From positions 96,001-160,000 of the forward strand of contig JBHLOC010000002.1 of NCBI GenBank assembly GCA_048940925.1: a DNA stretch of 64,000 bases, in the 5' to 3' direction. The position numbers were made by a program, and so were the translations under genes. Shown here piece by piece: positions 1 through 16,102 of the stretch; the first letter of the stretch is position 1, and each line of letters starts with the position of its first letter. The notes under the pieces are model-generated. The model was given only the letters and a program-made list of their open reading frames with translations, had not been told where the DNA came from and did no database searches. Origin of the DNA: Promethearchaeota archaeon (lineage in GTDB: Archaea > Asgardarchaeota > Lokiarchaeia > Sigyniarchaeales > SOKP01).

Positions 1-2
1 TG

Positions 3-974
3 ATGTATGGTTTTGCGAGTTTATGGATAAGCATTGGCTTAACAAGACTTTTCTTTTATTTTAGCGACTATTGGTTAGTAGGAACCTATACTGGAGATGT
101 AGAAAGCATTTTTCAAGTAAATAATCTCCTACAAATAATAATTTATTACTTTTACATGTATCTTTACATCTATATTTATATAAATGTAATAATATTATGT
201 TTGATGTTTGTTTGGTTTTCCATTAAATTAAAAGTTGAATTTCAAGCAATTTCCTCGATGATGGCGCTTGGTTTTACTGTATTTTTAATTGGTTGGACAT
301 TTGAGGCAGTATCGATAAAAGCTTTAGGTTTTTTATTTTCTGGAATATCCTCTATACTTGTTTTAATCGGAGTTTTAATTGCAATTTCTCCCTTAGTGCT
401 TGAGTTCGAATTCTTTTCTAGAAGATTAGCAATTTGGTTAATTATATCAATTATTGGTTTTATAGGCGTTTTTCTTACTTCTACATTCATCTTTAATCTT
501 GAAACAATTGCCTTAATTTTAGTTATGATTGGATTTTTCTCAATATTATTAGGTTCAGTAATAGTATATATGATATTTTATGCAATTAGATCAACTAAAG
601 CACCGAAGGAACAGAAAGAAGAACTTCAAGAAACATTAAGATTCTTTACTAGACGCCAAAAGTTTACAGAAGAAGAGGTCGCATTTCATAGAGAAAGAAA
701 AATTTGTTTAGTGTGCAAAACTCATATTTCAAGATTAAGCTATATTTGCCCGGAGTGTGATGCTCTATATTGTGTTAAGTGCTCTGAGGCATTAAGTAAT
801 TTAGAAAATGCATGTTGGGTTTGTGAAACCCCATTCGATGAAACTAAAGCCGTTCATATTGTGAGAGAAGAAAAGGCACTTTTAGAAGTTGATGAGACAA
901 TCGTTTCTGAAATTGAAGATAAAAAAAGTAAAAAAGCACCTAAGAAAATTAAAAATGATATGAAAAAGAATTAA
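3..974 (+). CDS. Multi-pass membrane protein with C-terminal C4C4 RING-like zinc finger (probably 5'-truncated by the window edge)
   Basis: Several hydrophobic helices, then CLVC-x10-CPEC-x4-CVKC-x10-CWVC (nt 705-824) and a charged tail. Confidence 0.75.
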   Translation: MYGFASLWISIGLTRLFFYFSDYWLVGTYTGDVESIFQVNNLLQIIIYYFYMYLYIYIYINVIILCLMFVWFSIKLKVEFQAISSMMALGFTVFLIGWTFEAVSIKALGFLFSGISSILVLIGVLIAISPLVLEFEFFSRRLAIWLIISIIGFIGVFLTSTFIFNLETIALILVMIGFFSILLGSVIVYMIFYAIRSTKAPKEQKEELQETLRFFTRRQKFTEEEVAFHRERKICLVCKTHISRLSYICPECDALYCVKCSEALSNLENACWVCETPFDETKAVHIVREEKALLEVDETIVSEIEDKKSKKAPKKIKNDMKKN

Positions 975-1021
975 ATTGAGATTAATAGTAATTCAGAAAA
1001 AAAAAAGAGATGTTTTGATTT

Positions 1022-1264
1022 ATGTTTTATAATACCTTTTCTATATATAACGATCTCAATTCATTAGTGAATTTACTCCTCATAATATTCTTAATAATAC
1101 CTTATGTGGCTTTATCACTTGTAGCAGTCTGGGTGTATAGAGATGCGAAAAGAAAAGGTATTAACGCTGCCGCTTGGATGCTTATCGTGTGGATAATTCC
1201 ATTTTTCATCGGTTTTATTATATATTTATCTAAAAGAGATAAATTTTTAGAAAATATTTCTTAA
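1022..1264 (+). CDS. Small membrane protein (PLDc N-terminal-like)
   Basis: Two TM segments flanking a WVYRDAKRKG...W motif. Confidence 0.6.
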   Translation: MFYNTFSIYNDLNSLVNLLLIIFLIIPYVALSLVAVWVYRDAKRKGINAAAWMLIVWIIPFFIGFIIYLSKRDKFLENIS

Positions 1265-1283
1265 AACACGTTTACAGATTTAA

Positions 1284-2963
1284 ATGGTAGTAGAAAAACC
1301 TAAAACTAAGAAAAAAGTTTTGAAAAAGAAGAGGTTTATATCAGAACATAAACGATTAGTAGCAGGAGGAATAATAGTTGCTATTGCTATCGCAGGAGTT
1401 ATCAGTGGCATTGTTCTTTTTGTTGAAGAGCCGAAAGGAGGAATTTGTATAATAGGGATTATAGGAGAGATTGGAGACATTGACCCTATCATCCATGGAT
1501 AATCTGGATTCCACGATGAGATAGTAGTTAATCAAGTTGCCGAAACTTTATTTGATTTCGATCATAGTGGTAAACAACCTATACTTATATATACTTTAGC
1601 AAAAAATTATAAGTGGAATGATGAAGCAACAGAATTAACCTGTTACCTTAGAAAGGGGGTTAAATTCCATGATGAAACCCCATTTAATGCGACAGCAGTT
1701 AAATGGAACTTCGATAGAATCCATCGTTTGGTCACGTGTTGGGCTAAGTATTTATTCTTATTACCTGATGGACGCTGGATTGTGAATAAAACTCAAGTTA
1801 TAGATGAATATACTGTAAAATTTGTAATAAATGAACCTTTTGTTCCATTTTTACATTTGTTAACTCTTGCTACTACTGGCATTTTATCGCCAACATCCAC
1901 ACCTGCTAATAAAACCATTAACATAAATACTGATGATTTAGTTGGGACAGGACCTTTCACGTATGATGAGTATGAACCCCATGTTAATATAACAATGATT
2001 CCAAATTAACATTACTGGGGAAAGACACCTAGAATAGACAAATTGGTTTTTCAATTTTATGAATATCCCACTGAAGGTGAGGACTTATGGAATGCACTTT
2101 TAGCAAAAGAAATTAGCATTTTAGAGCCTTATTTCTATATACTATATCCGAATTGGTCAATCCAGACTCTCAAGAATGATCCAGGGATTACAGTTCGAGA
2201 AAAGCCACCTACTAATTATCGTTTTATTGGAATGAATAACAAACTCATTAATCTTACCATGCGAAAGGCAATCTCATATGCTATTAACTATACTTACATG
2301 GCTGAGGATATTTTGCCCAACAAGGCAGTAAATGCTCGTTCTTCTATTCCAGAAGGGATCATCTACTCCGATACGACTTCATTTGATGTTCCTTATTATA
2401 ACATTTCATTGGCACGACAAATATTAAAGGATGTGGGGTGGCCTGGAACCTCTGATTTAACAGCAAATGATGATATTAGTGCTGGTAACCCCTGGGAAAT
2501 GTTAGTTTCTAATGAAACACCTCTTGCGACATATACATTGGATTATATACCCGGGAATCCATTATCTACTGGTATGGCATTTCCCGTTCCAAATAATCTC
2601 AAACAAATTGGAGTCAAGGTAATAAATCAATTTAATTGGTCCTTTCCGTTGCAGCTTGTTGCATTGGGCTAGATATATGATTATAACGATCCACATAATG
2701 CTATGTTAGATTACTATAGTAAAACCAACTGGATACAAATGAATGATAGTTTGGTCGACCAATGGATAGAAGAAGGGTTAAGAGAGACTAATCCTGCTCT
2801 CAGAGAAGAGATATATTATAAGATTCAAGAACGCATTATGGAAGAACTATATCCTGTTATATTTACCTTCTCTAGTATAGAATTTAATATACAGGTAAAA
2901 AATTTGAGAGGTTGGCAACCTAATCCACTCAAAACCCAATTAAAAAACGTCTATTTTGTATAA
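1284..2963 (+). pseudogene. Family-5 ABC substrate-binding protein (DppA/OppA-like) interrupted by three in-frame stops
   Basis: ORFs starting at 1284, 1728, 2043 and 2703 are all in one frame. The gaps translate to family motifs (VAETLFDF, LRKGVKFHDETPFNATAVKWNFDR, N*HYWG, LG*IYDYNDP). Stops are TAA 1500, TAA 2007 and TAG 2670. Confidence 0.8.
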
Positions 2964-3020
2964 TACAAATCTATACGAAAATTTTATGTTTTTGTTTCAG
3001 TTGCGAATTTTAGTATATCT

Positions 3021-4175
3021 TCATTCGAGAACTAAGGGTACACTTGTAAGATCGGATTCAAAAGATCCCTGGATAATTTCAAATGTTATATTATATAAAT
3101 TTTTAACCATATTTGCTATTAAATCTTTTGATGTTAAGTATAAAATACCTGTATATACAGTTGTCGGAATTTTCCCATCCGAATATAAACCATTGACAGA
3201 ATTTTTCCATCCGTAATCAAATCCATGTATTAACGTACATGTGAGATTGTAGATACTTACTATGCACCCCGGAAGTCCATATTTATCCATAAAAGTATTC
3301 CCGAAGGGTATTTCAAGAATAGCTCCTATCTTTGGATCATTATCCTCATATTTGACAAATACATCTCCATTATTAATTTTTACTATACCCGTTATATTAG
3401 CTCCAAATACTTTATATTGGTCAATATATAAATCATAATCACCATTTTCTACTTCAAAAGTCCATACACAATTTTGAGTATAGTTCACGTTCCTTGTCGT
3501 AAATTCTACATTTCCAGTTTTAACAATTCCAGTAACATAACCTCTAACTGTGCAATGGTTAAAATTATAGATAATATTACCTATGTTGATTATACCTGTT
3601 ATATTACCTTCAATATTACAGTCAGTAAAGTTATAAATAATATTGCCATTGGTGATATTAGTAATTACATTGTTGACAGAAATCCCCCAAGGAACTGTGA
3701 TTACAACACCCCCCTCATCAATGTTTGATGTAATATCAAAGATTCTATCTTTTCTAATTAACACATCTATACTTACGTTTTTTATTATCAAATTTGAAGA
3801 ATCAAACCACCTATCTGAAATTAGTTCTAATGTAAAATTAACAGCAGAACTAGTATTCTGCCATAAAAAATTGAAATAATCTGTATATGAATCTCCTTCT
3901 AAATTATGACCTACTATATCTATATTTACTTCTATCTTCATATAATAGTCAACTGGAGGAGAAATATAATATATTTTGATATCCCCTACATCAACATTAA
4001 GATTTAGTTTTTCAGTAGATGTTGGAGATTTTGGGTAATATTTGAAAATAAGAGATTCATTAATCATTTCATAAGATAAGATATTAGTTGAAAGAATGGT
4101 GATAGGGGCGACGATAATAAGACTAAAGCCTATAATAATTATTGGTATTATTACAATAATACTTTTCTTCACCAT
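3021..4175 (-). CDS. Membrane-anchored/secreted beta-rich protein (DUF4097/adhesin-like repeats)
   Basis: N-terminal TM/signal; repeated GNIIYNF.C.I.G.ITG motifs. Confidence 0.55.
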   Translation of the reverse strand: MVKKSIIVIIPIIIIGFSLIIVAPITILSTNILSYEMINESLIFKYYPKSPTSTEKLNLNVDVGDIKIYYISPPVDYYMKIEVNIDIVGHNLEGDSYTDYFNFLWQNTSSAVNFTLELISDRWFDSSNLIIKNVSIDVLIRKDRIFDITSNIDEGGVVITVPWGISVNNVITNITNGNIIYNFTDCNIEGNITGIINIGNIIYNFNHCTVRGYVTGIVKTGNVEFTTRNVNYTQNCVWTFEVENGDYDLYIDQYKVFGANITGIVKINNGDVFVKYEDNDPKIGAILEIPFGNTFMDKYGLPGCIVSIYNLTCTLIHGFDYGWKNSVNGLYSDGKIPTTVYTGILYLTSKDLIANMVKNLYNITFEIIQGSFESDLTSVPLVLE

Positions 4176-4350
4176 CTTTTGTTACATCCGTGAGATTTAT
4201 TAATTTTACAATTAATTAGATAAGAGAGCCTTTTATTTAAATTAATCCATCAAATATCTTTGATAAAAATCAATTTATAAAAGATAAAAATTAAAAAACT
4301 ACTAAAATAATATTTACATTATATAAGTAAAATCGAATGGTGCGAAAAAA

Positions 4351-4608
4351 ATGAGAATTACTGTTGAGGATTCAAGAACGGGAAAAGTAATCAAATTAGA
4401 TGTAAAATCTCATCACCAAATAGAAAGAATAGTTGATATTATTATAAAGCATATGGGTATTATCAGCGCAGAACAACGTTCTTATTCTTTAGTACTTAAA
4501 GATCAAGAACTCCCAAATACCATTACAATTGAGGATGCTGTTCATAAATTTGGCTTACAAGAAAATGATAAATTAATCTTATGGGCAAAAGTTGTGGGTG
4601 GGTCTTAA
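4351..4608 (+). CDS. Ubiquitin-like protein with C-terminal VVGG-S
   Basis: 85 aa beta-grasp pattern (MRITVED...L.V...I..I...YSLVL...GLQENDKLIL), di-Gly plus one extra residue, adjacent to E2/E1/JAB. Confidence 0.85.
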   Translation: MRITVEDSRTGKVIKLDVKSHHQIERIVDIIIKHMGIISAEQRSYSLVLKDQELPNTITIEDAVHKFGLQENDKLILWAKVVGGS

Positions 4609-4634
4609 GTCTCAAGTTCAAGTTATTTTATATT

Positions 4635-5201
4635 TTAGTCATCGATGATTAAAATTTCATCATCTTCTTCTTCTTCCTCAAATAATTGATCTTCGATGCT
4701 ATATTCTTTTTTAAGTTCTTCAACCGATGTTTTATTAAAAAATTCCGCAGCTTCTAAACATATAGGATAATTTAATGGATCATCAGGATTAGGATGTTCT
4801 ACCAGAGTTCTAAGAGCTTTAATCGTCGTTTCTAAATCAGATAACCTTGACCATTTTTTTAAGACGTTCAAGCAAATATATCCTGTCCCTGTGCTCCTTG
4901 ATGGGTTTTTAACAGGATGGATATTTGGATGAAAAATGCTTGAAAACCAAGAAAAATCAATCCCACCAGGATAAGGAAATGATCTATTAATCTTCAAGAA
5001 AATTCTATGAGATGTTTGTGGTTTTAATTCACCGTCTAATTTAGTTACCCCAAAAGCATTGATTAATATTGTAAATTCAACACTATTATTACCTTTAATT
5101 ACAGAATTTTCTACTAACACTTTAAGCTTTTGAATATTTTTAAGTTCATTTTCGATCCTATCTTTCCATATTTCATACGGAAGTTCTGGCACTTTCTTCA
5201 A
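4635..5201 (-). CDS. Ubiquitin-conjugating enzyme E2 with acidic tail
   Basis: FPYP, IFHPNI, GYICLNVLKKWS (catalytic Cys), PNPDDPLN, tail EEEEEDDE. Confidence 0.92.
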   Translation of the reverse strand: MKKVPELPYEIWKDRIENELKNIQKLKVLVENSVIKGNNSVEFTILINAFGVTKLDGELKPQTSHRIFLKINRSFPYPGGIDFSWFSSIFHPNIHPVKNPSRSTGTGYICLNVLKKWSRLSDLETTIKALRTLVEHPNPDDPLNYPICLEAAEFFNKTSVEELKKEYSIEDQLFEEEEEDDEILIIDD

Positions 5202-5283
5202 CCCTTTAATTTCTTAATTTTTTATATAGAGTATTATATTGATATTTTTTTATACCTTACTTTTTTAATATTATCTTCTAAAT

Positions 5284-6168
5284 TCATTTTTTCTTTTTAT
5301 ATGAACATGTCCAGCATTCTGGGTTCTTTAATTTTTTTACAATCCTAAATTGATTTAATAAACCATTGTAATTAAGTTGTTTACCAATCAAAGGTTTTCC
5401 TATGTGAGGATGCCATTTACCATGTTCTTTAAAATAGTCTAAACCTAAAAGAAATTTCAATACTTGTTGAGATTGTAAACCACCTATAATAGATGTGGTG
5501 GTGATGATTGTTGCCATTTTTGCTATTGTCTCACCATTTTCACTTTCGATTTCTTGACCGGTACATGAAAATTTTTTCCACATGATATCTAAATCAGTAT
5601 TTGAAATACTACATTGCAAACATGCGGCATCTTCTTCTCCAGAATATACAGATTGTACACTACCATAAAATTCTTCAATTCCTGAATCTACAAAGGGAAC
5701 ATCGTTGTAATAAGCATAATTGTTTGCTTCAATTCTAGCCTCTACGTTATCTAAACATGAACATATTACATCTGATTTTGTATAGAGCTTTTTATTAATA
5801 TCTTTTAAATCCTTTTTTATTGCCATTATAGACGTGTCCGGATTTAGTTGCTCACATGCACTTTTTATAACATCGACTTTATATTCTTTATTTTGAGCGC
5901 TTTTTTCATTAAATAGTACACAACGATTTAGATTAGAAATATTAATAAAATCATAATCTATCAATATTAGTTTTCCTATACCGGTTAAAACTAAGTTTTT
6001 AACAACTTCATTGCCAGTAGCCCCTACACCGATAACCATCACTGTGGCATTAGAAATTTTACTTTGATCCCAGCCAAATATACGCTTTTGGCGATCAAAC
6101 TTATCTGAATCTATTGATTCAATCCCATAAACTTTATACTCATCTTGATTTTTTTTATTATTTTGCAT
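5284..6168 (-). CDS. Ubiquitin-activating enzyme E1 (ThiF/MoeB-size)
   Basis: FDRQ, VIGVGATG, DYDFINISNLNR, CLDNVEAR, CLQC/CWTC Zn pairs, FSCT catalytic Cys. Confidence 0.92.
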   Translation of the reverse strand: MQNNKKNQDEYKVYGIESIDSDKFDRQKRIFGWDQSKISNATVMVIGVGATGNEVVKNLVLTGIGKLILIDYDFINISNLNRCVLFNEKSAQNKEYKVDVIKSACEQLNPDTSIMAIKKDLKDINKKLYTKSDVICSCLDNVEARIEANNYAYYNDVPFVDSGIEEFYGSVQSVYSGEEDAACLQCSISNTDLDIMWKKFSCTGQEIESENGETIAKMATIITTTSIIGGLQSQQVLKFLLGLDYFKEHGKWHPHIGKPLIGKQLNYNGLLNQFRIVKKLKNPECWTCSYKKKK

Positions 6169-6181
6169 TTAGATTTTAAAT

Positions 6182-6685
6182 TTATGTTATGTTTGGTTTA
6201 TCAACTAAAACAGCATAGCTAATTGATTTATAACCTTTATCTGAAGAATTATCAAGAGTGAAGAATTCTAATTCATCTCTTACGGGATCTATAACTAAGG
6301 CCACCTGGAAACTTTCTGGGAAGAAATAATTTTGTGTTTTTATATCAGTTGTAGAGAGAAAGCATCCAAAATCAGGATGAGAATGCCACCATCCCAAAAT
6401 TCGAAGCGAAGGATTATTTCTTGCTTTTTTTAGTCTTTGAAACTTCTTTTCATATTTTCCTGCAGTTCCTTCTATTTGAGCTGTTGAATATTTTTCACTA
6501 TGCACTGCGCCCAAAAGAAAAAGTAGATCCTCAATAACAATATAAATATTATCTTTCCATTTTAATATATTTCCAATTAAATAGCCGAAAATTTCATTTT
6601 CAATGTTCTTACATAATTGAATAATCTTCCGAATTGTGTTATCATAAATATATACAGGAAATATATATTTTTTTTCGAATTTCAT
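6182..6685 (-). CDS. JAB/MPN+ metalloprotease (Rpn11-like deubiquitinase)
   Basis: EIFGYLIG...GWWHSHPDFGCFLSTTD JAMM motif, ALVIDPV. Confidence 0.93.
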   Translation of the reverse strand: MKFEKKYIFPVYIYDNTIRKIIQLCKNIENEIFGYLIGNILKWKDNIYIVIEDLLFLLGAVHSEKYSTAQIEGTAGKYEKKFQRLKKARNNPSLRILGWWHSHPDFGCFLSTTDIKTQNYFFPESFQVALVIDPVRDELEFFTLDNSSDKGYKSISYAVLVDKPNIT

Positions 6686-6721
6686 GATTTATAATGTTTC
6701 CAAAGTTCTATAAATATATTT

Positions 6722-7621
6722 TTATTGATACTTGGCTTTAAATCTTCCACTCTTTTCAATTATGGAATTTTGAATCATTTTGTTTATTATTTCATATATT
6801 TCTTCTTTCGCCTTTTTATCAATCGCAGAAAAACCAAAAGTTATTAATCCAAATGATTCAGTTATTTTTTCTGGTTCAAAAGATGATTTCGTCAAATCTT
6901 GAAAGTTAGCAATAATATAAAAATCTGCTTTAATTGCCCTTCTTTTTAAATGATCATAAATGTTCTTAGTCCTACCTAAATTGCCAGCACCTGAATTTGT
7001 AACGATACAAATAATATCAAATGAATCCAGTAGAGGCTTATATAAAGCAGAATTTTCATATATATCTTGTAAATTAACCTCTCTAATAATAACCTCATTT
7101 AATTTTTCAAAATTAGATAAAACAACCTTTTTTTCTAATATTTCATTAAAATCATCGTCCAATTCCAAGACAGTTTCTCCAGGAAATAAGTTTAAAATAG
7201 AAGTTTTGCCTACTCCTTCTTCTCCTATTAGCAATATCCTTGGAGGTATAAAAATATGTTTTTCGGTAAATTCATCTAATTCTTTAATAATTTTGATTTT
7301 TTTATCCCAACTAAACGATTTAAGTTTATATCGCCTAATAAATTCTCGTTTTAATAATTCTAATCGATTTCTTAATTCTAATTCTTGATCTCCCCCACCA
7401 CTTATTAGTATATACATGAAATTTTGCTCATCATAAGAATAGATAAATTTAAAGTTCGTAAAGTTCAAGGATCTTATTTTACCTCCTCCTAATTTTCTAC
7501 TGTAATCATTAAAAGTAGTGAGGTAATTTACTATATCATTATCAACAACATGGGGACTCATAAATGTTTTAGAATAACATAATTCTCCCTCTGCGGTGAT
7601 AATAAATATTTTTGAGATCAT
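6722..7621 (-). CDS. Longin domain-small GTPase-like fusion, paralogue 1
   Basis: N-terminal longin pattern (IFIITAEGELCYSKTF...IRSLNF), P-loop GEEGVGKTS, ANFQD, SAI. Confidence 0.8.
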   Translation of the reverse strand: MISKIFIITAEGELCYSKTFMSPHVVDNDIVNYLTTFNDYSRKLGGGKIRSLNFTNFKFIYSYDEQNFMYILISGGGDQELELRNRLELLKREFIRRYKLKSFSWDKKIKIIKELDEFTEKHIFIPPRILLIGEEGVGKTSILNLFPGETVLELDDDFNEILEKKVVLSNFEKLNEVIIREVNLQDIYENSALYKPLLDSFDIICIVTNSGAGNLGRTKNIYDHLKRRAIKADFYIIANFQDLTKSSFEPEKITESFGLITFGFSAIDKKAKEEIYEIINKMIQNSIIEKSGRFKAKYQ

Positions 7622-7667
7622 TCCAATTTTGTATTAATTTATTTTAATAATTTTTATTTTTTTCATT

Positions 7668-8564
7668 TTAAATTTGTTTTTTCATAATCTTTTCTACTAT
7701 TGAAGATTTTACCATCTCACTAATTATGTCATTTATTTTTCCTTTTGCCTCTTTTTTAATTGCCGAGAGCCCAAAAGTTTTAACTCCAAATATTTCCTCT
7801 ATTTTTTCGGGTTCAAAAGATGTGCTTTCTAAATCTTGAAAATTAGCAATAATGTAAAAATCAGCTTTCTTTACTCTTTCTTGTAACATAGAAAATAATC
7901 TTTTTGTTCTTCCCAAATTACTAGCTCCAGAGTTAGTGACAATACATATAATATCAATAGCATCTAAAAGTGTTCTATAGACTTTTGTATTGTCAATCAA
8001 TTCTTTTAGATCAAGTTCTCTTAAAATTAATTCGTTTATTCTATCGAAAACAGGTAAATGTATTGGCTTTTGAATTATTTCAATTAAATCATCATCTAAT
8101 TCTATTATAGTTTCTCCCGGAAATAAATTCATGATTGTACTCTTTCCCACTCCATCTTCGCCAACTAGTAAAACTTTAGGAGGAATAAAAATATTTTTTT
8201 CTGCAAACTCATCAAATTTTTCATATTTAGTTGTTTCACATGACCAGTTTTTTAAATCCTCATAATATCTCTTCATAAATTCCTCTTTAAGTAACTCAAG
8301 TTTCGCAGTGACTTCTTCCTCTGGGTCATTAATATCAGTTACTATAATAAACATTCCTAGTTTTTCATCATCATAAGTATAAACAAAATTGAAATTTCTG
8401 AAGTTTAATGACTTTATTTCTCCACCCCCTATTTCTTCAGCTATATTGCTAATCGCGGTTAGAAATCCACTTATCAAATCACCACTAATTTGATCATCAC
8501 CGATAAATGTCTTTGAATAGCAAAGCACGCCACCAGGACCAATAATAAGTATTTTTGAAATCAT
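7668..8564 (-). CDS. Longin domain-small GTPase-like fusion, paralogue 2
   Basis: ILIIGPGGVLCYSK, DLISGFLTAI, GEDGVGKST, ANFQD, SAI. Confidence 0.82.
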   Translation of the reverse strand: MISKILIIGPGGVLCYSKTFIGDDQISGDLISGFLTAISNIAEEIGGGEIKSLNFRNFNFVYTYDDEKLGMFIIVTDINDPEEEVTAKLELLKEEFMKRYYEDLKNWSCETTKYEKFDEFAEKNIFIPPKVLLVGEDGVGKSTIMNLFPGETIIELDDDLIEIIQKPIHLPVFDRINELILRELDLKELIDNTKVYRTLLDAIDIICIVTNSGASNLGRTKRLFSMLQERVKKADFYIIANFQDLESTSFEPEKIEEIFGVKTFGLSAIKKEAKGKINDIISEMVKSSIVEKIMKKQI

Positions 8565-8693
8565 TTTGGGGTTTATATTATATCCATTTATTAATTAATT
8601 TAATAATAGAAAGATTGATTATTTAAAATGATCATATGAAATTTCAACAATTATAAATATATTATTCTCATTTAAATACAATTGTGAAATATT

Positions 8694-8843
8694 TTGGATG
8701 AAAGAGACGAAGATACGCAACCCCATGATAAGGAACCAACAATTATAAGCTCCGAAGATCAAGAAATTAAAGAAAAGAAACCTCCAAATGATAAAATAAT
8801 TTATTGTAAAATAGTAGAAAATGATAAGAATTCAGATTTTTAA
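8694..8843 (+). CDS. Possible small charged protein (49 aa)
   Basis: Open frame from TTG 8694 to TAA 8841 in an intergenic gap (LDERDEDTQPHDKEP...); no recognisable motif. Confidence 0.25.
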   Translation: MDERDEDTQPHDKEPTIISSEDQEIKEKKPPNDKIIYCKIVENDKNSDF

Positions 8844-8907
8844 AATAAAGAAGCCTAACTTTAGTAAAACTAATTTAATTCACTTTTTTGAAAAAATATA
8901 GCCAAAA

Positions 8908-9858
8908 TTAATTTAAAATAATAGTAATATCGTCATCATTCTCTATTTTACTCCCATCTTGTTCTTTTTTAGAAGAAGAATATTTTTTAATAATTGAGTA
9001 TTCAACCATTTCTGTAATTATGTTATAAATTTTTTTATTTGCCTTTTTTGATATAGCTGAGATACCAAAAGTCTTTATTTTAAAATATTCTTCAATTTTT
9101 TCGGGCAGAAATGACATATCTTTTAAATCTTGGAAGTTAGCAATTATATAGAAATCGGCTTTTTTTACTTTTGGTTTCAAAAGAGTGAACAGTCTTTTTG
9201 TTTCTTTTAAATTCTTTGCCCCTGAATTGGTAACGATACAAAAAATTTCCACAGAGTCTAAGAATTGTTGATGAGTATTCAAATTATCAATTAAATCACG
9301 TAGATCAATTTCCCTGACAATAATTTCCCCTATCTCTTTTAGTTTTGGTAAATAAATTGTTTTTTGTATAATATCATTCATATATTCATCCAGTTTTATT
9401 ACTGTATCTCCTGGAAATAGATTCATAATAGTCGTTTTTCCCACACCAACTTCTCCAACTAACAATATTTTAGGAGGAATAAAAATCTGTTTCTCAGTAA
9501 ATTCATCAAAGCTTTTAAATTTTCTAATATCATAATCCCAGTTTTCTAAATCATGTCGATATCGTTTCATAAACTCCATTTTTAATAATTCTACTTTATA
9601 TCTTATTTCGTCTTCCAAGTCATCAACGTCAGTTATAATTATGAATATATAAGATTTTTCATAATTGAAGGAATAAAAAATATTAAAGTTCCTAAAACTT
9701 AGAGATTTTATTTCTCCTCCACCAATTTCCTTAGCAATGTCGCTAACAGCTGTAAAGAAACCACTTACAAAATCTTCATCTATTCTTTTTTCATCCATAA
9801 ATGATTTTGAATAACAAAGAACTCCATTAGACTTTATAATTAATATTTTCTTAATCAT
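8908..9858 (-). CDS. Longin domain-small GTPase-like fusion, paralogue 3
   Basis: ILIIKSNGVLCYSK, DFVSGFFTAV, GEVGVGKTT, ANFQD, SAI. Confidence 0.82.
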   Translation of the reverse strand: MIKKILIIKSNGVLCYSKSFMDEKRIDEDFVSGFFTAVSDIAKEIGGGEIKSLSFRNFNIFYSFNYEKSYIFIIITDVDDLEDEIRYKVELLKMEFMKRYRHDLENWDYDIRKFKSFDEFTEKQIFIPPKILLVGEVGVGKTTIMNLFPGDTVIKLDEYMNDIIQKTIYLPKLKEIGEIIVREIDLRDLIDNLNTHQQFLDSVEIFCIVTNSGAKNLKETKRLFTLLKPKVKKADFYIIANFQDLKDMSFLPEKIEEYFKIKTFGISAISKKANKKIYNIITEMVEYSIIKKYSSSKKEQDGSKIENDDDITIILN

Positions 9859-9917
9859 TAAAAATCTTTAATCTGTCAGTTTTCATTTAATGATAGATCT
9901 ATTGCTTATTTAAAACA

Positions 9918-11816
9918 TTATAATTCTTCAATCTCCGCAAGAAAAATATCTGCTATTTTATTCCACTTCTCTTTAATATCCGATTGAGTTGATGCTGAAT
10001 TTGTCATTTCTTTTCCCTTTTTCAAGTTTTTTACAGCTAGTTCATCACTTTTGAGTTCTTTATAACAGATACCTAGCTTAATATAAGTTTGATTAATATA
10101 CCATTCGTTATTGGCTATTTCTATTACCTTTTGAAACTGCTTTATGGCATTTTGATAGTCTTGAAAATACATTAATATTTCTCCGTATGTATCGTAATAA
10201 ATTCCAGTCTCTGGATTACGCTTAATGAGATCACGAATAACATCCAATGATTCTTCCTCCTTATTTAAATATTGTAACCAATAAGCTTTATACACTAGTA
10301 GTTCATTATCCTTTGGATATTTCTGAAGTAATTCATTAATTATTTCAAATCCATCTTTAACCTCCTTTATTCTTTTAAGTACAGAAGCTTTTTTCATTTT
10401 GATATCCTTTTCACTTTCAGGAAATATTTCTAGCATTTCATCTAATAAATTTATAATTTCGTCTATTTGGTCAAAATAGATTAAAATTTTGATTTTAGAA
10501 TAATATAATTCAAGATTTTTTGGAGTTTTTTCGATGTCTTGATTAATCTCTTCAAGTTCCTTTTTATATTGCTTTTCTAAATCTTCTGAATTCTGCGTTT
10601 GAAATACTTTTAGCATACCCTGCCAGATAATTCCCTCTAATTTATCATATTCCTCTTTTAACTCTACTTTTGCTTCAATCTTATATGCTAAATAGTTAAT
10701 GTAATTTGGTAAAAATTCCCTTAAGGATTCCTTTAATCTTTCATCAAATAGTAAATCGGTAATTTCCTCTAAAATACTATTTAATGTGGTATTAATATCT
10801 ATTGATCTTGAAAATAATTTATCTAGATAGGTAAATTCACTGATGGAATCTTCAGTAATTGCACGTATTATTGTTTCTAACTTTTCATTTTCCTGGAAGT
10901 AATAAAAATTGCCGGGAGGTACCTTTAATTTAAAAAATTTTATTGGATATATGTTATTCTCTACAATTTCATCAATATAATAAGTAAGCGTATTCTCCTT
11001 AATTCCATATTTTCGGGAGAATTCTTCAGATGAAATATATTCTGGATACCGAACAGGATGATTCAATGAAAGATATAACAATATTTTATGAAAATCATCC
11101 TCATTTTTTAACAAAGACTCAACTCTATTATAATCTAGTTTTAATACGTTGTTGAGAAACCTAAATTGTGTGCGTGTATCATTTATGTTAAACTCATCAA
11201 AAAAATTTAGTGTCTTGCGAGCAACTTCTTCAATTCTCTTACTTTCCTCTTCCAAAATCGTTTGTCTATCTAAATCATAATATTGCAACATTCGTGAATA
11301 CTCAGATTTACCTACTTGAGTAATTCTGTATTCTTTCTTATCATCATCTTTTCCTACATACCCATTCCTTATCATTAATTTCATTGTCTTGGATAATGAT
11401 GACTGATTAATAGAAAGCGGTTCTGCTAGAAAATCTGCCCACTTGCAGTAGTTATTATTATACAACATCCACAAAATCCAATGGTCATAATTCCTACTCT
11501 TTAACATTATTTCAGGAGGATAACTCAACGTTCTTTTTTTCTTCTTTACTTTAGATAAATCATGGAATCTTCTCTTGCCTTCAGACGTGATTTTATAATG
11601 TCCTTTTGAAATTTTATTTATATACTTTTCATTTATTAACGTTGTAAGGTATCTTGAAAGTGTAGATGTAGATATTTCAAGTGGTTCCTGAATAAAATCA
11701 GACCATTCACATTCTTTGTTATTATATAACATCCAGAGAATGATATGCTCGAAATTTTTCTTTTCTAAACTTGGAGGGTTAAAAATTTCTTGAGGTGGGT
11801 AATTTCGACTTGACAT
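9918..11816 (-). CDS. Tandem winged-helix + C-terminal TPR protein (putative transcription regulator), paralogue A
   Basis: Two repeats of H.ILWMLYNN..C.W.DF...P..I..S.LS....L.....Y.IT..GK; TPR repeats (YYDTYGEILM...YQNAIKQFQK). Confidence 0.75.
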   Translation of the reverse strand: MSSRNYPPQEIFNPPSLEKKNFEHIILWMLYNNKECEWSDFIQEPLEISTSTLSRYLTTLINEKYINKISKGHYKITSEGKRRFHDLSKVKKKKRTLSYPPEIMLKSRNYDHWILWMLYNNNYCKWADFLAEPLSINQSSLSKTMKLMIRNGYVGKDDDKKEYRITQVGKSEYSRMLQYYDLDRQTILEEESKRIEEVARKTLNFFDEFNINDTRTQFRFLNNVLKLDYNRVESLLKNEDDFHKILLYLSLNHPVRYPEYISSEEFSRKYGIKENTLTYYIDEIVENNIYPIKFFKLKVPPGNFYYFQENEKLETIIRAITEDSISEFTYLDKLFSRSIDINTTLNSILEEITDLLFDERLKESLREFLPNYINYLAYKIEAKVELKEEYDKLEGIIWQGMLKVFQTQNSEDLEKQYKKELEEINQDIEKTPKNLELYYSKIKILIYFDQIDEIINLLDEMLEIFPESEKDIKMKKASVLKRIKEVKDGFEIINELLQKYPKDNELLVYKAYWLQYLNKEEESLDVIRDLIKRNPETGIYYDTYGEILMYFQDYQNAIKQFQKVIEIANNEWYINQTYIKLGICYKELKSDELAVKNLKKGKEMTNSASTQSDIKEKWNKIADIFLAEIEEL

Positions 11817-12452: not shown

Positions 12453-12995
12453 ATGAATGAGTCTGGAAAAGAATTACGATTTAAGATTACAGTTATAGGA
12501 GATGGAAAAGTAGGAAAGACATCTCTTATTAAAAAATTCACTCAGGGTACATTTGATACTAACTATGTCGAGACGATTGGGGCTCAATTTTCCAAGTATG
12601 ATAAAAAAATAGATGGGGATAATATAAGATTATTATTTTGGGATATTGCAGGTCAAGATTCATTTCACTTTTTACGTCCTTCTTTCTTTAGAGAGAGTTC
12701 TGCTGCTATTATTGTATATAGTCTTGAAAAAAATGAGCTTGGAAGCCGAAGTTTTGAACATATAACTAATTGGTATGAGGATGTTAATCGTTTTTGTGGA
12801 CAAATCCCTATTGTTATATTTGCTAATAAGGTTGATCTAATTGAAGAAGATAAACTAGACCACTCACAAATTCAAAAAATTGTACAAAAACACAATTTTC
12901 TAGATTATTTTATTACTTCTGCGAAATCAGGACAAGGAGTTTATAAGGCATTTAATGCAATTATTAATAAATTGTATAATGATTTAATACGCTAA
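12453..12995 (+). CDS. Rab-like small GTPase
   Basis: GDGKVGKTS, TIG, WDIAGQ, NKVD, TSAK; no C-terminal Cys prenylation motif. Confidence 0.92.
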   Translation: MNESGKELRFKITVIGDGKVGKTSLIKKFTQGTFDTNYVETIGAQFSKYDKKIDGDNIRLLFWDIAGQDSFHFLRPSFFRESSAAIIVYSLEKNELGSRSFEHITNWYEDVNRFCGQIPIVIFANKVDLIEEDKLDHSQIQKIVQKHNFLDYFITSAKSGQGVYKAFNAIINKLYNDLIR

Positions 12996-13062: not shown

Positions 13063-13308
13063 TTAGTAAGGAACACTTACAACTTCCTTAACATCTGGAA
13101 CAAACTGTTTAAGAGCCCTCTCGATACCTAGCTTTACCGTCTGTGAACTATAAGGGCATCCCGCGCAATGACCCATTAAACGAACCTTAACAGTTCCATC
13201 ATCAGCTATATCGACTAGCTCCACATCTCCACCATCCATCTGGAGTTGTGGTCGAATCTTATCTATTACTTGTTTTATTTTATCTTTATCCAAACTCGAT
13301 TCACTCAT
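13063..13308 (-). CDS. NifU C-terminal (Nfu) domain Fe-S carrier
   Basis: IRPQLQMDGGDVEL...GHCAGCPYS. Confidence 0.9.
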   Translation of the reverse strand: MSESSLDKDKIKQVIDKIRPQLQMDGGDVELVDIADDGTVKVRLMGHCAGCPYSSQTVKLGIERALKQFVPDVKEVVSVPY

Positions 13309-13515
13309 TAATATTATATTCTTTAATAAAAAAAAGGCAAATTAACTTTTAAAGGATTCTTTTTATATTTTATTAATATTTATTCATAATCGTTAATTTT
13401 ACCAAAGCATTTTGATATTTTTATTATAGAATAAAGTGAATTTTCTAAAACTGTTTAAAACAGCTAAATCTCTCCATTTGAAAATGATTATTTCAGGTAA
13501 TGATAGAGTTTTCTA

Positions 13516-14115
13516 CTACAATGCTTCGTATCCTAATCGTAAGGCTTTTAAATTAGCTTCAATAGCTTTCTTAGGTACTACTTTCGGAATGATATCTATC
13601 AGCTGTTCCAAACCTAATGGGAAACCGTTAATTTTAGCTAGAGAACCTAAAAGAGCAACATTTAAGGTAAGGGGGTTACCTGCTTTTTTAGCTATATCTA
13701 AAGCATCTATAATATGAATATTTTTTGTCACCTCTCGTAATTGTTCTACTATCCTTCCAATAGTAATGTATGGTATCTCAGGATTTTTCACTCGCTCAAA
13801 AGTACTTTGAATAGGATGCCATATATAGTTGTTTAAAATAATAATTCCATTCGGTTGTAAGTATTCTATATATCTCAATGTTTCTATCGCTTCTATTCCA
13901 AGTAAAACATGCGCTTCTCCGTAAGGAATTAAGGGAGAATACACTTCCTTTCCAATACGAATATGTGTATAGATTGAGCCTGAACGCTGAGCTAATCCAT
14001 GAGTTTCTGCAGTTCTAATTTTTAAACCGAATTCAGCACAAGCTAATCCTAAGATATTTGACATTAGCATTAACCCTTGACCTCCAACACCACATGTCAT
14101 TATGTTATAAGTCAT
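13516..14115 (-). CDS. iorB: Indolepyruvate:ferredoxin oxidoreductase beta subunit
   Basis: GVGGQG, ETHGLAQRSGS; overlaps iorA. Confidence 0.9.
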   Translation of the reverse strand: MTYNIMTCGVGGQGLMLMSNILGLACAEFGLKIRTAETHGLAQRSGSIYTHIRIGKEVYSPLIPYGEAHVLLGIEAIETLRYIEYLQPNGIIILNNYIWHPIQSTFERVKNPEIPYITIGRIVEQLREVTKNIHIIDALDIAKKAGNPLTLNVALLGSLAKINGFPLGLEQLIDIIPKVVPKKAIEANLKALRLGYEAL

Positions 14116-16102
14116 GACGAATCTCCCTGAGTATTTTATATGGTTTGATTACATTATGTTCGGAAGGGTGCTCTGGATCAGTATATGGACAAATTATGGA
14201 ACATACCCCACATCCATCGCATAACTCAGCAGAAATATGCGAAGAATAACCTTTCCACATCTTTCCATCTTTATCAGAGAAATCAGTGATGCTAGATTCC
14301 ATATGTATAGCAGGACAATAAAAATCTTGCATACAGGTATGACATTTTCGACATATTGTTTGATCCACATAATAGGGTTGAATCTTTTCTCCTCTTTTTC
14401 TCTTGTTTCTATCCTTCCAAAGTGCACAAGGTCCTCGGGATATAATAATCGAAGGACCTGGTCTCTCTAATGCCTTTTTAAATGCAGGGACGCAATTTTT
14501 AGTATCAAAACAATCATTGATGACAATATTGGTAAATCCAATCCCCTTAAGAACATTTTCAATCAGAATCCTATTTTTAGGAACATCACCAGCTCCGTAT
14601 CCTGTACCGGGATTTGGTTGCTGTCCTGTCATAGCGGTTACAGAATTGTCTAAGATTATGACAACTACATCTTCATTATTATTGCAGATATTTATTATTC
14701 CAGGTAAACCAGCATGGAAGAATGTGCTATCGCCAATCACTGAGATTACTTTTTCATTAGCGGCTAATGAAACACCACTCGCTGTTCCTAATGTAGCACC
14801 CATAGCTAAAAGTAAATCATCAGCATTCATCTTCGAATAAACATCTTTATTCAATAAAAGCATCGAATAACAACCAATATCATTCATGAAAGCAATTTTA
14901 TCAGATTTTCCTGTTAATGCTCTGTTTAATGCCCAAAAAGTAGATCGATGGGGGCATCCAGGGCAAAATACGGGAATTCTGGCAGGCAATATCGATTTCA
15001 GCTTATTAGATCTTTCTAAATATGCTTGGTATTCAATATCAGTCTTAACATTATAAATGTCCTTAAATGCTTTGAAGACAATTGGAACATTATATTCGAA
15101 TGCTTCTCTAAAATGATTAGATTCTTTCCCAAAAATCTTGAGATCCGGATTTACATCCTTAGCTAATGCTTTCACATTTTGTTCAAGATATGGAGATAAT
15201 TCTTCTACAATAATTACTCCTTTTAGTTTCTCTATGAAGTTATTAATTAAATTTTTAGGTAATGGATATGTCGTTCCTAATTTCAAAATCGGTGGGTTAA
15301 TTTGGAGTTTTTTGCAAGCTTCAAGTACGTAGTTGTATGATACTCCGGAAACTATTACGCCGTAGTTTGAAGTACCATTAATTAATGAATTGAATTGTGA
15401 GGTTTCAAAATCGTTTCTGATTTTGTCCCTTTTTTCAAGAAGTTTTAATTTCAACTCTCTAGCTTTGCTTCCTACAGTTGCATATTTTTTATTACCTTTT
15501 CTAAAACTCCCTGAGGTAAATTCAGTTCTCTTTATTGGTTCCAACGGTACAATTGTAGATTGATGATTTATTCTTGTTGTAGTTCTAATTAAAACAACGG
15601 TTTGATATTTTTCTGACAAATAAAATGCTGATTTAACCATTTCTTTAGCTTCTACAGGATCAGTAGGTTCTAACATAGGAATGTACGCATTTGAAGCAAA
15701 AAATCGTCCATCTTCTTCACTCTGTGAGGAATGACAGAAGGGATCATCTGCAAAAACTAATACACATCCTTTATTTATTCCCGTATAACCTAAACTAAAG
15801 AATGTATCTGAAGCTACGTTAAGGCCTACACTTTTCATTGCTGTAAATGATCTCTGGTCTCCCATAGATGCTCCGGCTACGATTTCAAGAGCTACTTTTT
15901 CATTAGAAGCAACTTCCATTTTTATATTAAATCTATCAGCAATTTGCAAAAATGTATCTAGTATTTCTGATACTGGAGATCCTGGATAAAATGCTACGAC
16001 CTTAACATCAGACTCAAGAGCAGCTCGAACAATAGCTTCATTACAAAACAGAAAAGCATTCGACTTTTTATTTGAAATAACATCTGAAATCATCGTTATC
16101 AT
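14105..16102 (-). CDS. iorA: Indolepyruvate:ferredoxin oxidoreductase alpha subunit
   Basis: NEAIVR, YPGSP, NEKVALE, MKSVGLNVA, FCPGCPHR, GDSTFFH TPP motif, C-terminal ferredoxin. Confidence 0.93.
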   Translation of the reverse strand: MITMISDVISNKKSNAFLFCNEAIVRAALESDVKVVAFYPGSPVSEILDTFLQIADRFNIKMEVASNEKVALEIVAGASMGDQRSFTAMKSVGLNVASDTFFSLGYTGINKGCVLVFADDPFCHSSQSEEDGRFFASNAYIPMLEPTDPVEAKEMVKSAFYLSEKYQTVVLIRTTTRINHQSTIVPLEPIKRTEFTSGSFRKGNKKYATVGSKARELKLKLLEKRDKIRNDFETSQFNSLINGTSNYGVIVSGVSYNYVLEACKKLQINPPILKLGTTYPLPKNLINNFIEKLKGVIIVEELSPYLEQNVKALAKDVNPDLKIFGKESNHFREAFEYNVPIVFKAFKDIYNVKTDIEYQAYLERSNKLKSILPARIPVFCPGCPHRSTFWALNRALTGKSDKIAFMNDIGCYSMLLLNKDVYSKMNADDLLLAMGATLGTASGVSLAANEKVISVIGDSTFFHAGLPGIINICNNNEDVVVIILDNSVTAMTGQQPNPGTGYGAGDVPKNRILIENVLKGIGFTNIVINDCFDTKNCVPAFKKALERPGPSIIISRGPCALWKDRNKRKRGEKIQPYYVDQTICRKCHTCMQDFYCPAIHMESSITDFSDKDGKMWKGYSSHISAELCDGCGVCSIICPYTDPEHPSEHNVIKPYKILREIRHDL

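Follow-up and report, generated by a model that had tools for sequence, protein, structure and literature searches.

The 64,000-nucleotide stretch of DNA analysed here, referred to as the window, comprises positions 96,001 to 160,000 of contig JBHLOC010000002.1 within a 4.8-Mb Asgard metagenome-assembled genome (Promethearchaeota archaeon, GCA_048940925.1; G000:C41:96001-160000 in our numbering) and carries a ubiquitin-type gene cluster in which the genes for a ubiquitin-like modifier (Ubl) and its enzymes stand beside three genes for fusions of a longin domain to a degenerate GTPase. Named in the direction of transcription, the minus strand carries longin-GTPase paralogue 3 (8908-9858), paralogue 2 (7668-8564) and paralogue 1 (6722-7621), the last of which adjoins a gene for a JAMM/MPN+ metalloprotease (6182-6685), followed by an activating enzyme (E1; 5284-6168) and a conjugating enzyme (E2; 4635-5201). 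The Ubl gene (4351-4608, plus strand) and the E2 gene are convergent, with 26 nt between them. The intergenic gaps along E2, E1, JAMM, paralogue 1 and paralogue 2 measure 82, 13, 36 and 46 nt; paralogue 3 is separated from paralogue 2 by 343 nt and, because of this gap, probably has a promoter of its own. Our open reading frame (ORF) map, Pfam scan and translations place every ORF named in the initial annotation at the positions and on the strands given there, including the tightly spaced run and the Ubl gene converging on E2.

The Ubl is a divergent modifier of 85 amino acids in pro-form, ending in VVGG-S. A profile of ten orthologues has ubiquitin as its sole match in the PDB, aligned from end to end with the GG on G75-G76 of ubiquitin, and this GG is invariant in the ten orthologues, where it is followed by zero to nine variable residues; such variable tails past the GG fit with obligatory processing. 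Against single ubiquitin chains the profile scores 13-15 bits only, the match to Pfam Rad60-SLD is sub-threshold (E 0.005) and PF00240 missed the Ubl of the window in a genome search at E <= 0.001. From its sequence, the protein nevertheless qualifies as a putative β-grasp modifier ending in Gly-Gly. The E2 has a UBC fold with the HPN motif and a catalytic cysteine (GYICLN) and reaches 41 bits with Pfam UQ_con, for which the cut-off is 27 bits; HPN and Cys110 are invariant in nine orthologues, and an insertion of about 8 amino acids separates HPN from the catalytic cysteine. Its C-terminal tail (window 4635-4700) is acidic-hydrophobic-acidic (…EEDDEILIIDD; …DDDIIIIDD in orthologues), resembles a β-strand of the SUMO-interaction-motif type and might serve for non-covalent binding of the Ubl or of some other partner.

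The E1 is a compact ThiF-type protein of 294 amino acids (ThiF, 168 bits) with two CxxC pairs, between which the nearly invariant Cys202, in the crossover-loop region, is a candidate catalytic cysteine. In an alignment it lacks a UFD-like C-terminal extension, whereas another E1 of the same genome, 411 amino acids in length, has a tail of about 100 extra amino acids. Among NCBIfam models those for ThiF and MoeB are most similar to the compact E1, all of them below their cut-offs. The metalloprotease (JAB, 46 bits; Prok-JAB, 33 bits) contains an intact E…HxH-x7-S-x2-D motif in translation, here in the form HSH-x7-S-x2-D, and is the probable enzyme for both processing of the pro-Ubl and deconjugation. 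PADLOC and NCBIfam together yielded no specific family for the Ubl, the E2 and the longin-GTPases, nor for the RING, small transmembrane and β-rich proteins described below.

The three longin-GTPase paralogues, each of about 300 amino acids, share 53-61% pairwise identity. Searched as a profile, the N-terminal 125 residues match AP-2 sigma (E 3e-6), AP-3 sigma, MON1, TRAPP subunits, SRX and VAMP7, and the Fuzzy/MON1 longin model of Pfam finds 10 of 25 family members (best E 3.5e-9). An AlphaFold2 (AF2) model of paralogue 2 (pLDDT 85, pTM 0.79) shows the longin topology β-β-α-β-β-β-α-α and, after it, a G domain. An exhaustive structural comparison matches residues 1-129 of this model to the longin domain of CPLANE (Fuzzy/Inturned) with Z 14.9 (root-mean-square deviation (rmsd) 2.6 Å, 125 residues aligned) and to that of VAMP7 with Z 14.3, and residues 125-296 to Arf1, Sec4 and Arf6 with Z 16-17. 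Foldseek with the whole model returned G-domain matches only (E ~1e-8), the longin match coming from the exhaustive VIA search alone. As modelled, the N-terminal domain is thus a true longin fold and the G domain Arf/Rab-like, and the label given in the initial annotation holds.

The further description of these proteins as switches fares less well. In the ubiquitin-linked clade the P-loop GExGVGK[ST] is invariant, the SA of G5 is kept, and in G4 the residues N241, Q243 and D244 are invariant, with the lysine of NKxD being a phenylalanine (NFQD). The switch-I threonine and the DxxG(Q) motif are absent, the aligned positions reading ELDDD… and (E/V)xDLxE; distant relatives (22-30% identity) carry the canonical PT, WDxAGQ and NKQD. 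With the P-loop, the asparagine and aspartate in G4 and the SA in G5 retained, the proteins probably bind nucleotide; lacking the switch-I threonine and DxxG, they are unlikely to act as classical GTP/GDP switches. The number of paralogues per genome ranges from one to five. The same tandem order of paralogue types recurs in several genomes of the genus (e.g. G202 and G222), which argues for paralogues that are old and maintained.

An important question is whether the neighbourhood of conjugation genes and longin-GTPases is a peculiarity of one assembly or a conserved unit. A gene-neighbourhood survey among Asgard genomes, as the initial annotation had proposed, supports conservation within the GTDB family to which the window belongs. 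In 121 genomes of this family, searched with thresholds of E <= 1e-60 for the E1 orthologue and E <= 1e-35 for the longin-GTPase, each of the two was present in 59 genomes and both were present in 57, with two genomes having only E1 and two having only the GTPase. Where both occur, they lie within 4 kb of each other in 51 of 57 genomes, with a median gap of 608 nt that corresponds to the JAMM gene, and several of the six non-adjacent exceptions sit at contig edges. A comparison of related loci, numbered with the prefix L, shows the gene order to recur in independent assemblies, and a search with a narrow alignment gave at least 13 loci. The order longin-GTPase, JAMM, E1, E2 and convergent Ubl is found in L015, L020, L022 and L024-L027; in L015 and L027 it extends from a winged-helix protein upstream of the longin-GTPase to a small transmembrane protein and a 300-residue membrane protein beyond the Ubl. 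L021 shares the core, on a contig that stops soon after E2 and before a possible Ubl, and L017 keeps longin-GTPase, JAMM and E1 together, with E2 moved off by an inserted block of genes. A gene order shared by independent assemblies, and by 51 of the 57 related genomes with both genes, is far beyond chance, and the coupling of a ubiquitin module to longin-GTPase fusions that had been read from the window alone is borne out.

Within the family the distribution of the unit is patchy by genus (31/40, 14/41, 6/10, 4/6 and 2/7 genomes), a pattern which suggests that its genes come and go as one. Of 151 genomes sampled across the phylum, 12 of the 25 from the same GTDB family contained orthologues at E <= 1e-40, and none of the 126 from 26 other Asgard families did. 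Since orthologues are confined to one GTDB family, the system looks lineage-specific rather than ancestral. In a set of 5.8 billion proteins the longin-GTPase has 324 homologous matches, nearly all of them unnamed or 'hypothetical' Asgard proteins; among representatives at 50% identity, 310 match at E <= 1e-3 and only 17 at E <= 1e-30. Depositor labels on such proteins (Hod-, Hermod- and Thorarchaeota) had suggested a spread across Asgard phyla, a reading that was dropped since the GTDB survey puts all orthologues in one family.

The initial annotation had found no RING-type ligase (E3) in the operon. At the very start of the window, however, an ORF at 3-974 (plus strand) encodes a polytopic membrane protein. 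Hydropathy shows some 5-6 hydrophobic segments within residues 1-190, and the C-terminal domain, at about residues 220-290, has a RING fold and makes the protein a candidate E3. The finger has the spacing C-x2-C-x10-C-x2-C-x4-C-x2-C-x10-C-x2-C (C4C4), in which the x4 between ligands 4 and 5 is one above the classical x2-3, and all eight cysteines are invariant across 37 homologues. Pfam gives a sub-threshold RING match only; a profile of the RING tail matches the RING of TRIM37 (E 8e-4), TFIIH p44, RNF4, MGRN1 and Mdm2. With an AF2 model of the domain (pLDDT 74) as query, the top 50 Foldseek matches are all RING E3 domains, including TRIM37, HRD1, RNF213, Rad18, Ring1B/Bmi1 and MDM2 (prob up to 0.99), and the core superimposes on RNF24, RNF213 and MDM2 with an rmsd of 2-3.3 Å over about 50 residues.

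The RING domain is also a predicted binder of the E2. A complex prediction for the E2 core with the RING domain gives an ipSAE of 0.71, as against 0.00 for the best control, with at least 96% contact agreement between runs and a partner pLDDT of at least 81. Of 80 solved complexes 58 reached the calibration mark, as did 2 of 110 mismatched pairs, counts that hold approximately since our own alignments were used. On the E2 side the predicted interface is made by helix 1, at residues 5-22, together with two loops, at 77 and at 119-122; on the RING side it is made by the central helix together with the first zinc loop and the tryptophan that follows Cys7, i.e. the E2 is predicted to dock at the textbook RING-E2 surface. 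The membrane RING gene is always followed by a gene for a small protein with two transmembrane segments by hydropathy (1022-1264, plus strand), orthologues of which (54-57% identical) lie between the RING gene and the Ubl or GTPase gene in L013, L015, L027, L028 and L029. Orthologues of the RING protein (51-55% identical) are encoded immediately ahead of the Ubl gene in L015 and L027 and next to the longin-GTPase gene in L013, and weaker paralogues of the RING tail flank the operon in loci such as L024 and L025. The unit of longin-GTPase, JAMM, E1, E2, Ubl and membrane RING protein is a real and conserved variant of ubiquitin-type systems.

This is not the only ubiquitin system of the genome. 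A more canonical cluster on contig C30 (G000:C30:39900-46300; L033:3905-10453) contains three PF00240-type Ubl genes, two of them with N-terminal extensions, together with the 411-residue E1 and its additional tail at the C-terminus, an E2 matched by UQ_con at 91 bits and a JAB protein of 277 amino acids; it also holds a protein of 392 amino acids of no known kind. A third E2 is encoded on contig C87. The absence of ESCRT genes from the operon, already stated in the initial annotation, extends to their location in the genome, the two Snf7 matches of which lie on contigs C54 and C62 and not on the contig of the window (C41), and no ESCRT family was found among the window proteins covered by Pfam scans. 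Because the C30 cluster is separate and Snf7 is encoded on C54 and C62, the window system is a second, divergent ubiquitin-like module of this genome without a link to ESCRT. It had been proposed as a possible precursor of ubiquitin-trafficking links; its narrow distribution (12/25 in its own family, 0/126 elsewhere in the sample) calls for caution against reading it as the ancestor of a eukaryotic system, and it looks more like a parallel invention inside one Loki-type family.

Among the other genes around the unit several recur, namely those for a winged-helix protein with tetratricopeptide repeats (wHTH-TPR), a Ras/Rab-like GTPase, a β-rich anchored protein and family-5 solute-binding proteins. 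The wHTH-TPR protein (9918-11816, minus strand; 632 amino acids) combines a double winged helix with TPR (Pfam HTH_34, MarR, TPR), and may be a regulator or scaffold; in L013, L015 and L027 the next gene upstream of the longin-GTPase encodes an orthologue (65-68% identical), and L028 and L029 have a homologue (44-45%). It has a paralogue at 16341-18254 of the window. A protein of helical repeats and winged helices near an MPN protease is reminiscent of PCI-MPN pairings, though with a different domain order. Between the two wHTH-TPR paralogues (13063-16102) are a NifU-like gene and genes of a 2-oxoacid:ferredoxin oxidoreductase (POR gamma, TPP and ferredoxin domains), which appear unrelated to the ubiquitin unit. 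The Ras/Rab-like protein (12453-12995, plus strand; 180 amino acids; Ras, 142 bits) is a canonical small GTPase with orthologues (60-77% identical) within about 7 kb in L013, L015, L020, L022, L024, L025 and L027.

On the other side of the operon, a β-rich protein with a single N-terminal membrane anchor (3021-4175, minus strand) has no match in Pfam or NCBIfam, and its homologues (29-36% identical) adjoin the RING gene in L013, L015, L027, L028 and L029. Next to it, at 1728-2672 (plus strand), are fragments of a family-5 solute-binding protein in two ORFs (1728-2009 and 2043-2672, covering positions 65-134 and 176-319 of the SBP_bac_5 profile), so that this gene is apparently disrupted, by pseudogene formation or an assembly error. 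Intact pairs of a solute-binding and a β-rich protein occur upstream in L019. To judge from these arrangements, the pair in the window is a module inserted between the genes for the RING and small transmembrane proteins and the Ubl gene.

Variants of the longin-GTPase itself also occur at related loci. In one, just upstream of the operon in many genomes (protein P0128; L024:4388-7010, L025:10001-12620), a longin-GTPase from the same clade is followed by a linker of about 350 amino acids and a C-terminal CN_hydrolase domain, i.e. an amidase of the nitrilase superfamily, giving open frames of 868-890 amino acids; in some genomes such fusions, of 874-890 amino acids, replace or supplement the 300-residue form. 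A fusion of P0128 with the wHTH-TPR neighbour was considered and ruled out, as there is no similarity between them and the tail is the CN_hydrolase domain. Another variant is a degenerate GTPase without longin domain but with a C-terminal extension, encoded after the RING and small transmembrane genes (L028, L029, G109, G197, G198); the extension (P0134:175-351) gave only sub-threshold leads to TPR/SNAP-like proteins (Atlas score 0.82). In L028:8640-11305 and L029:2331-5110 the RING, small transmembrane and longin-less GTPase genes are followed by a convergent Ubl gene with a shorter wHTH-TPR gene beyond, and JAMM, E1 and E2 are not adjacent. Finally, P0144 (465 amino acids, from a metagenome), a distant relative, joins a longin domain and a canonical Arf-like GTPase to a C-terminal zf-RING_2 domain (27.4 bits). 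As one RING fusion in 69 longer distant longin-GTPase relatives scanned, it is a weak candidate for a 'Rosetta stone' linking longin-GTPases and RING proteins.

How might these components work together? With their identities, catalytic motifs, co-occurrence and gene order established by our data, the reading we favour, with moderate confidence, is a second and divergent Ubl conjugation system of one Loki-type (Promethearchaeia) family that is sited at the membrane and has longin-GTPases as dedicated subunits. For the order of the pathway, its membrane site and the adaptor role of the longin-GTPases we infer the following. The JAMM protease would trim the pro-Ubl after its GG and could also reverse conjugation, the compact ThiF-type E1 would adenylate the Ubl and load it onto the UBC-type E2, and the charged E2 would dock on the cytosolic C4C4 RING of the polytopic membrane protein with its small two-span partner. 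This candidate E3 might then steer modification to membrane-proximal targets. The longin-GTPase would be a dedicated non-enzymatic subunit, most likely a regulator or adaptor, through which the RING/E2 pair or the JAMM protease may be coupled to a partner, for example a target protein or the Ras-like GTPase encoded nearby, the latter perhaps being read by the longin domain.

Several observations weigh against this reading. The genomes behind our counts are related and not independent, so that the co-occurrence numbers describe a pattern and overstate its statistical support. The 16 runs that match positions 1-9900 of the window are all DNA, from sediment and mangrove metagenomes, and none is RNA. 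For the RING domain the Foldseek E-values are weak (at least 9e-3), though this is expected for a domain of 50 residues, and because RING-E2 complexes have already been solved, the passing score of the E2-RING prediction may reflect the model's memory of these and would then indicate likeness, not binding. The RING gene of the window itself lies 3.4 kb upstream of the Ubl gene, with the solute-binding/β-rich module between them; a distance of 7 kb or less from E1 is seen for only 11 of 33 RING orthologues, and at E <= 1e-30 a RING orthologue is missing from at least 11 genomes in which E1 and longin-GTPase are both present. Because of these last two findings the E3 may be dispensable or replaceable. 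RING orthologues are, however, within 7 kb of a degenerate-GTPase gene in 26 of 33 cases, mostly within 550 nt or at about 2.7 kb, so that the tie between GTPase and RING is at least as tight as that between GTPase and E1.

The alternative that survives best takes the longin-GTPases as the main substrates, i.e. the Ubl would tag and JAMM untag co-encoded proteins, for instance as a control on how stable they are or whether they associate with membranes. Ubiquitylation regulates the Rag, Rab and Arf GTPases of eukaryotes in this way, and a degenerate G domain can be a target without cycling. Tight gene order, co-occurrence of both families and a paralogue number that varies from one to five would all suit this idea, as would the finding that a reconstituted Asgard cascade modifies a co-encoded neighbour, UEV-Vps23 (bioRxiv 10.1101/2023.07.25.550441). 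The GTPase is nevertheless linked to the RING protein also at loci that lack JAMM, E1 and E2 as neighbours (L013, L028, L029), which suits a partner of the ligase at least equally well, and the roles of substrate and partner are not mutually exclusive. As the principal explanation we regard the substrate role as rather unlikely; of the two roles, that of adaptor or regulator seems to us roughly twice as probable.

Less likely still is an antiviral or conflict system of the Bil or CBASS Cap2/Cap3 kind, which lacks a classical E3 and in which the GTPase-like protein would serve as sensor or effector. The set of Ubl, E2, E1 and JAB genes does mirror bacterial Bil operons, the patchiness even within genera (31/40, 14/41, 2/7) and the variable neighbourhoods and copy numbers would fit, and PADLOC weakly matches the E1 to its 'E1-E2' model (63 bits) and the JAB protein to 'JAB' (30 bits). 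Against this, the E2 is a eukaryote-type UBC protein (Pfam UQ_con) unfused to the E1, and the E1 scores far higher on the generic ThiF model (168 bits) than on the defence models. E2, Ubl, longin-GTPases and RING match no PADLOC model, a blank that is weak evidence given a 2023 library of mainly bacterial systems, and the conserved neighbours are membrane, solute-binding and Ras-like proteins, with no nucleases or defence genes seen nearby. That ThiF protein and β-grasp protein merely form a sulfur carrier pair of the MoaD/ThiS type, as the shortness of the E1, its nearest though sub-cut-off NCBIfam models and a Ubl divergent enough to escape PF00240 might suggest, or that the adjacency of the longin-GTPases is functionally meaningless, is very improbable, because a UBC E2 with HPN and cysteine, a JAMM protease, pro-Ubl tails and a RING are hallmarks of protein conjugation and chance cannot account for co-occurrence in 57 of 59 genomes and adjacency in 51 of 57, so that the conserved linkage refutes the latter idea.

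Taking the favoured reading of a membrane-sited conjugation system one step further, a more specific and distinctly speculative version, which we would not expect to be correct as it stands, is a nutrient- or cargo-responsive membrane ubiquitin ligase. Here longin domain and pseudo-GTPase, possibly by reading the Ras-like GTPase, would gate the membrane RING E3, which would tag surface and transport proteins, such as the family-5 solute-binding and β-rich anchored proteins, for removal or remodelling without ESCRT. If so, the system would be an independent archaeal counterpart of eukaryotic longin/Rag/RING logic (GATOR-SEA-like) or of ubiquitin-dependent sorting of membrane proteins. The system is restricted to one lineage and so provides no evidence for an ancestral eukaryote-like pathway.

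Our literature search, which left most subscription journals outside its scope, found no description of a longin-GTPase and ubiquitin operon or of its membrane-RING partner. Ubiquitin cascades of archaea and longin and GTPase proteins of Asgard archaea have been described before; their conserved union at the level of an operon apparently has not. It implies a physical coupling between ubiquitin-type tagging, a membrane RING protein and trafficking-type modules. With about eight small proteins, the unit is a tractable set for studying how such tagging couples to GTPase/longin modules and to membranes, and it offers a natural case of strong conservation in a Ras-fold domain despite the loss of its switch motifs.

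Comparison with known systems helps to place the unit. Bil and CBASS Cap2/Cap3 systems likewise co-encode Ubl, E1, E2 and JAB protease, but here the E2 is separate and UBC-like, and a RING protein and longin-GTPases are present. Closer is the operon of Caldiarchaeum subterraneum, which contains ubiquitin, an E1-like and an E2-like protein, a small RING E3 and an Rpn11-like JAMM protease and whose in vitro reconstitution has been reported (PMC5654768, PMC6043591). By domain content both systems cover the same five classes, with a pro-form of the modifier, which in the window would be processed by JAMM, a UBC E2 and a RING protein, which in the window is a candidate E3. The window differs in having its RING domain at the cytosolic end of a polytopic membrane protein whose gene lies on the opposite strand, in its compact E1 (294 amino acids) and in the one to five longin-GTPase genes that, at this and related loci, belong to the unit, features for which there is no report from Caldiarchaeum. 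In Asgard archaea, an ESCRT-linked E1/E2/RING cascade of Helarchaeia that modifies UEV-Vps23 has been reconstituted, and a ubiquitin cluster of Hodarchaeia has a Rab-like GTPase together with Yip1 (bioRxiv 10.1101/2023.07.25.550441). Conserved neighbourhoods of eukaryotic signature proteins, namely ESCRT with ubiquitin and LAMTOR1-like with Rab-like and DENN proteins, as well as Rag-type GTPase-longin fusions, were described by Liu et al. (bioRxiv 10.1101/2020.10.19.343400). Longin-GTPase fusions were also reported in Asgard MK-D1, with ubiquitin unmentioned (Tran et al. 2024, PMC10933270). Like the ESCRT-linked clusters, the window system has a ubiquitin cascade with a pro-form modifier and co-encoded trafficking-type proteins as presumed clients, but it has no ESCRT link, and its partner is a fusion of longin domain and GTPase in which the switch motifs are degenerate.

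Eukaryotic membrane RING E3s include Hrd1/gp78 and the RING-CH proteins MARCH/Doa10. They share with the window protein a multi-span membrane domain and a cytosolic RING for a UBC E2 (predicted here), and the zinc finger of Hrd1 is among the best fold matches of the window RING; in its membrane part, however, no sequence homology to them was detected, its RING is all-cysteine and its ligase role is putative. TRIM23, a RING-Arf fusion, has in P0144 an analogue of reverse order. Known partnerships of longin and GTPase folds include Rag GTPases with roadblock domains, Mon1-Ccz1, TRAPP, Fuzzy-Inturned/CPLANE, FLCN-FNIP, GATOR1 and SRX of SR-alpha with SR-beta. In these, as in the window proteins, a longin fold is paired with a Ras-superfamily fold; here, however, the two are joined as longin-then-GTPase in a single chain, which has lost G2 and G3, reads NFQD in G4 and is encoded in a ubiquitin-type operon.

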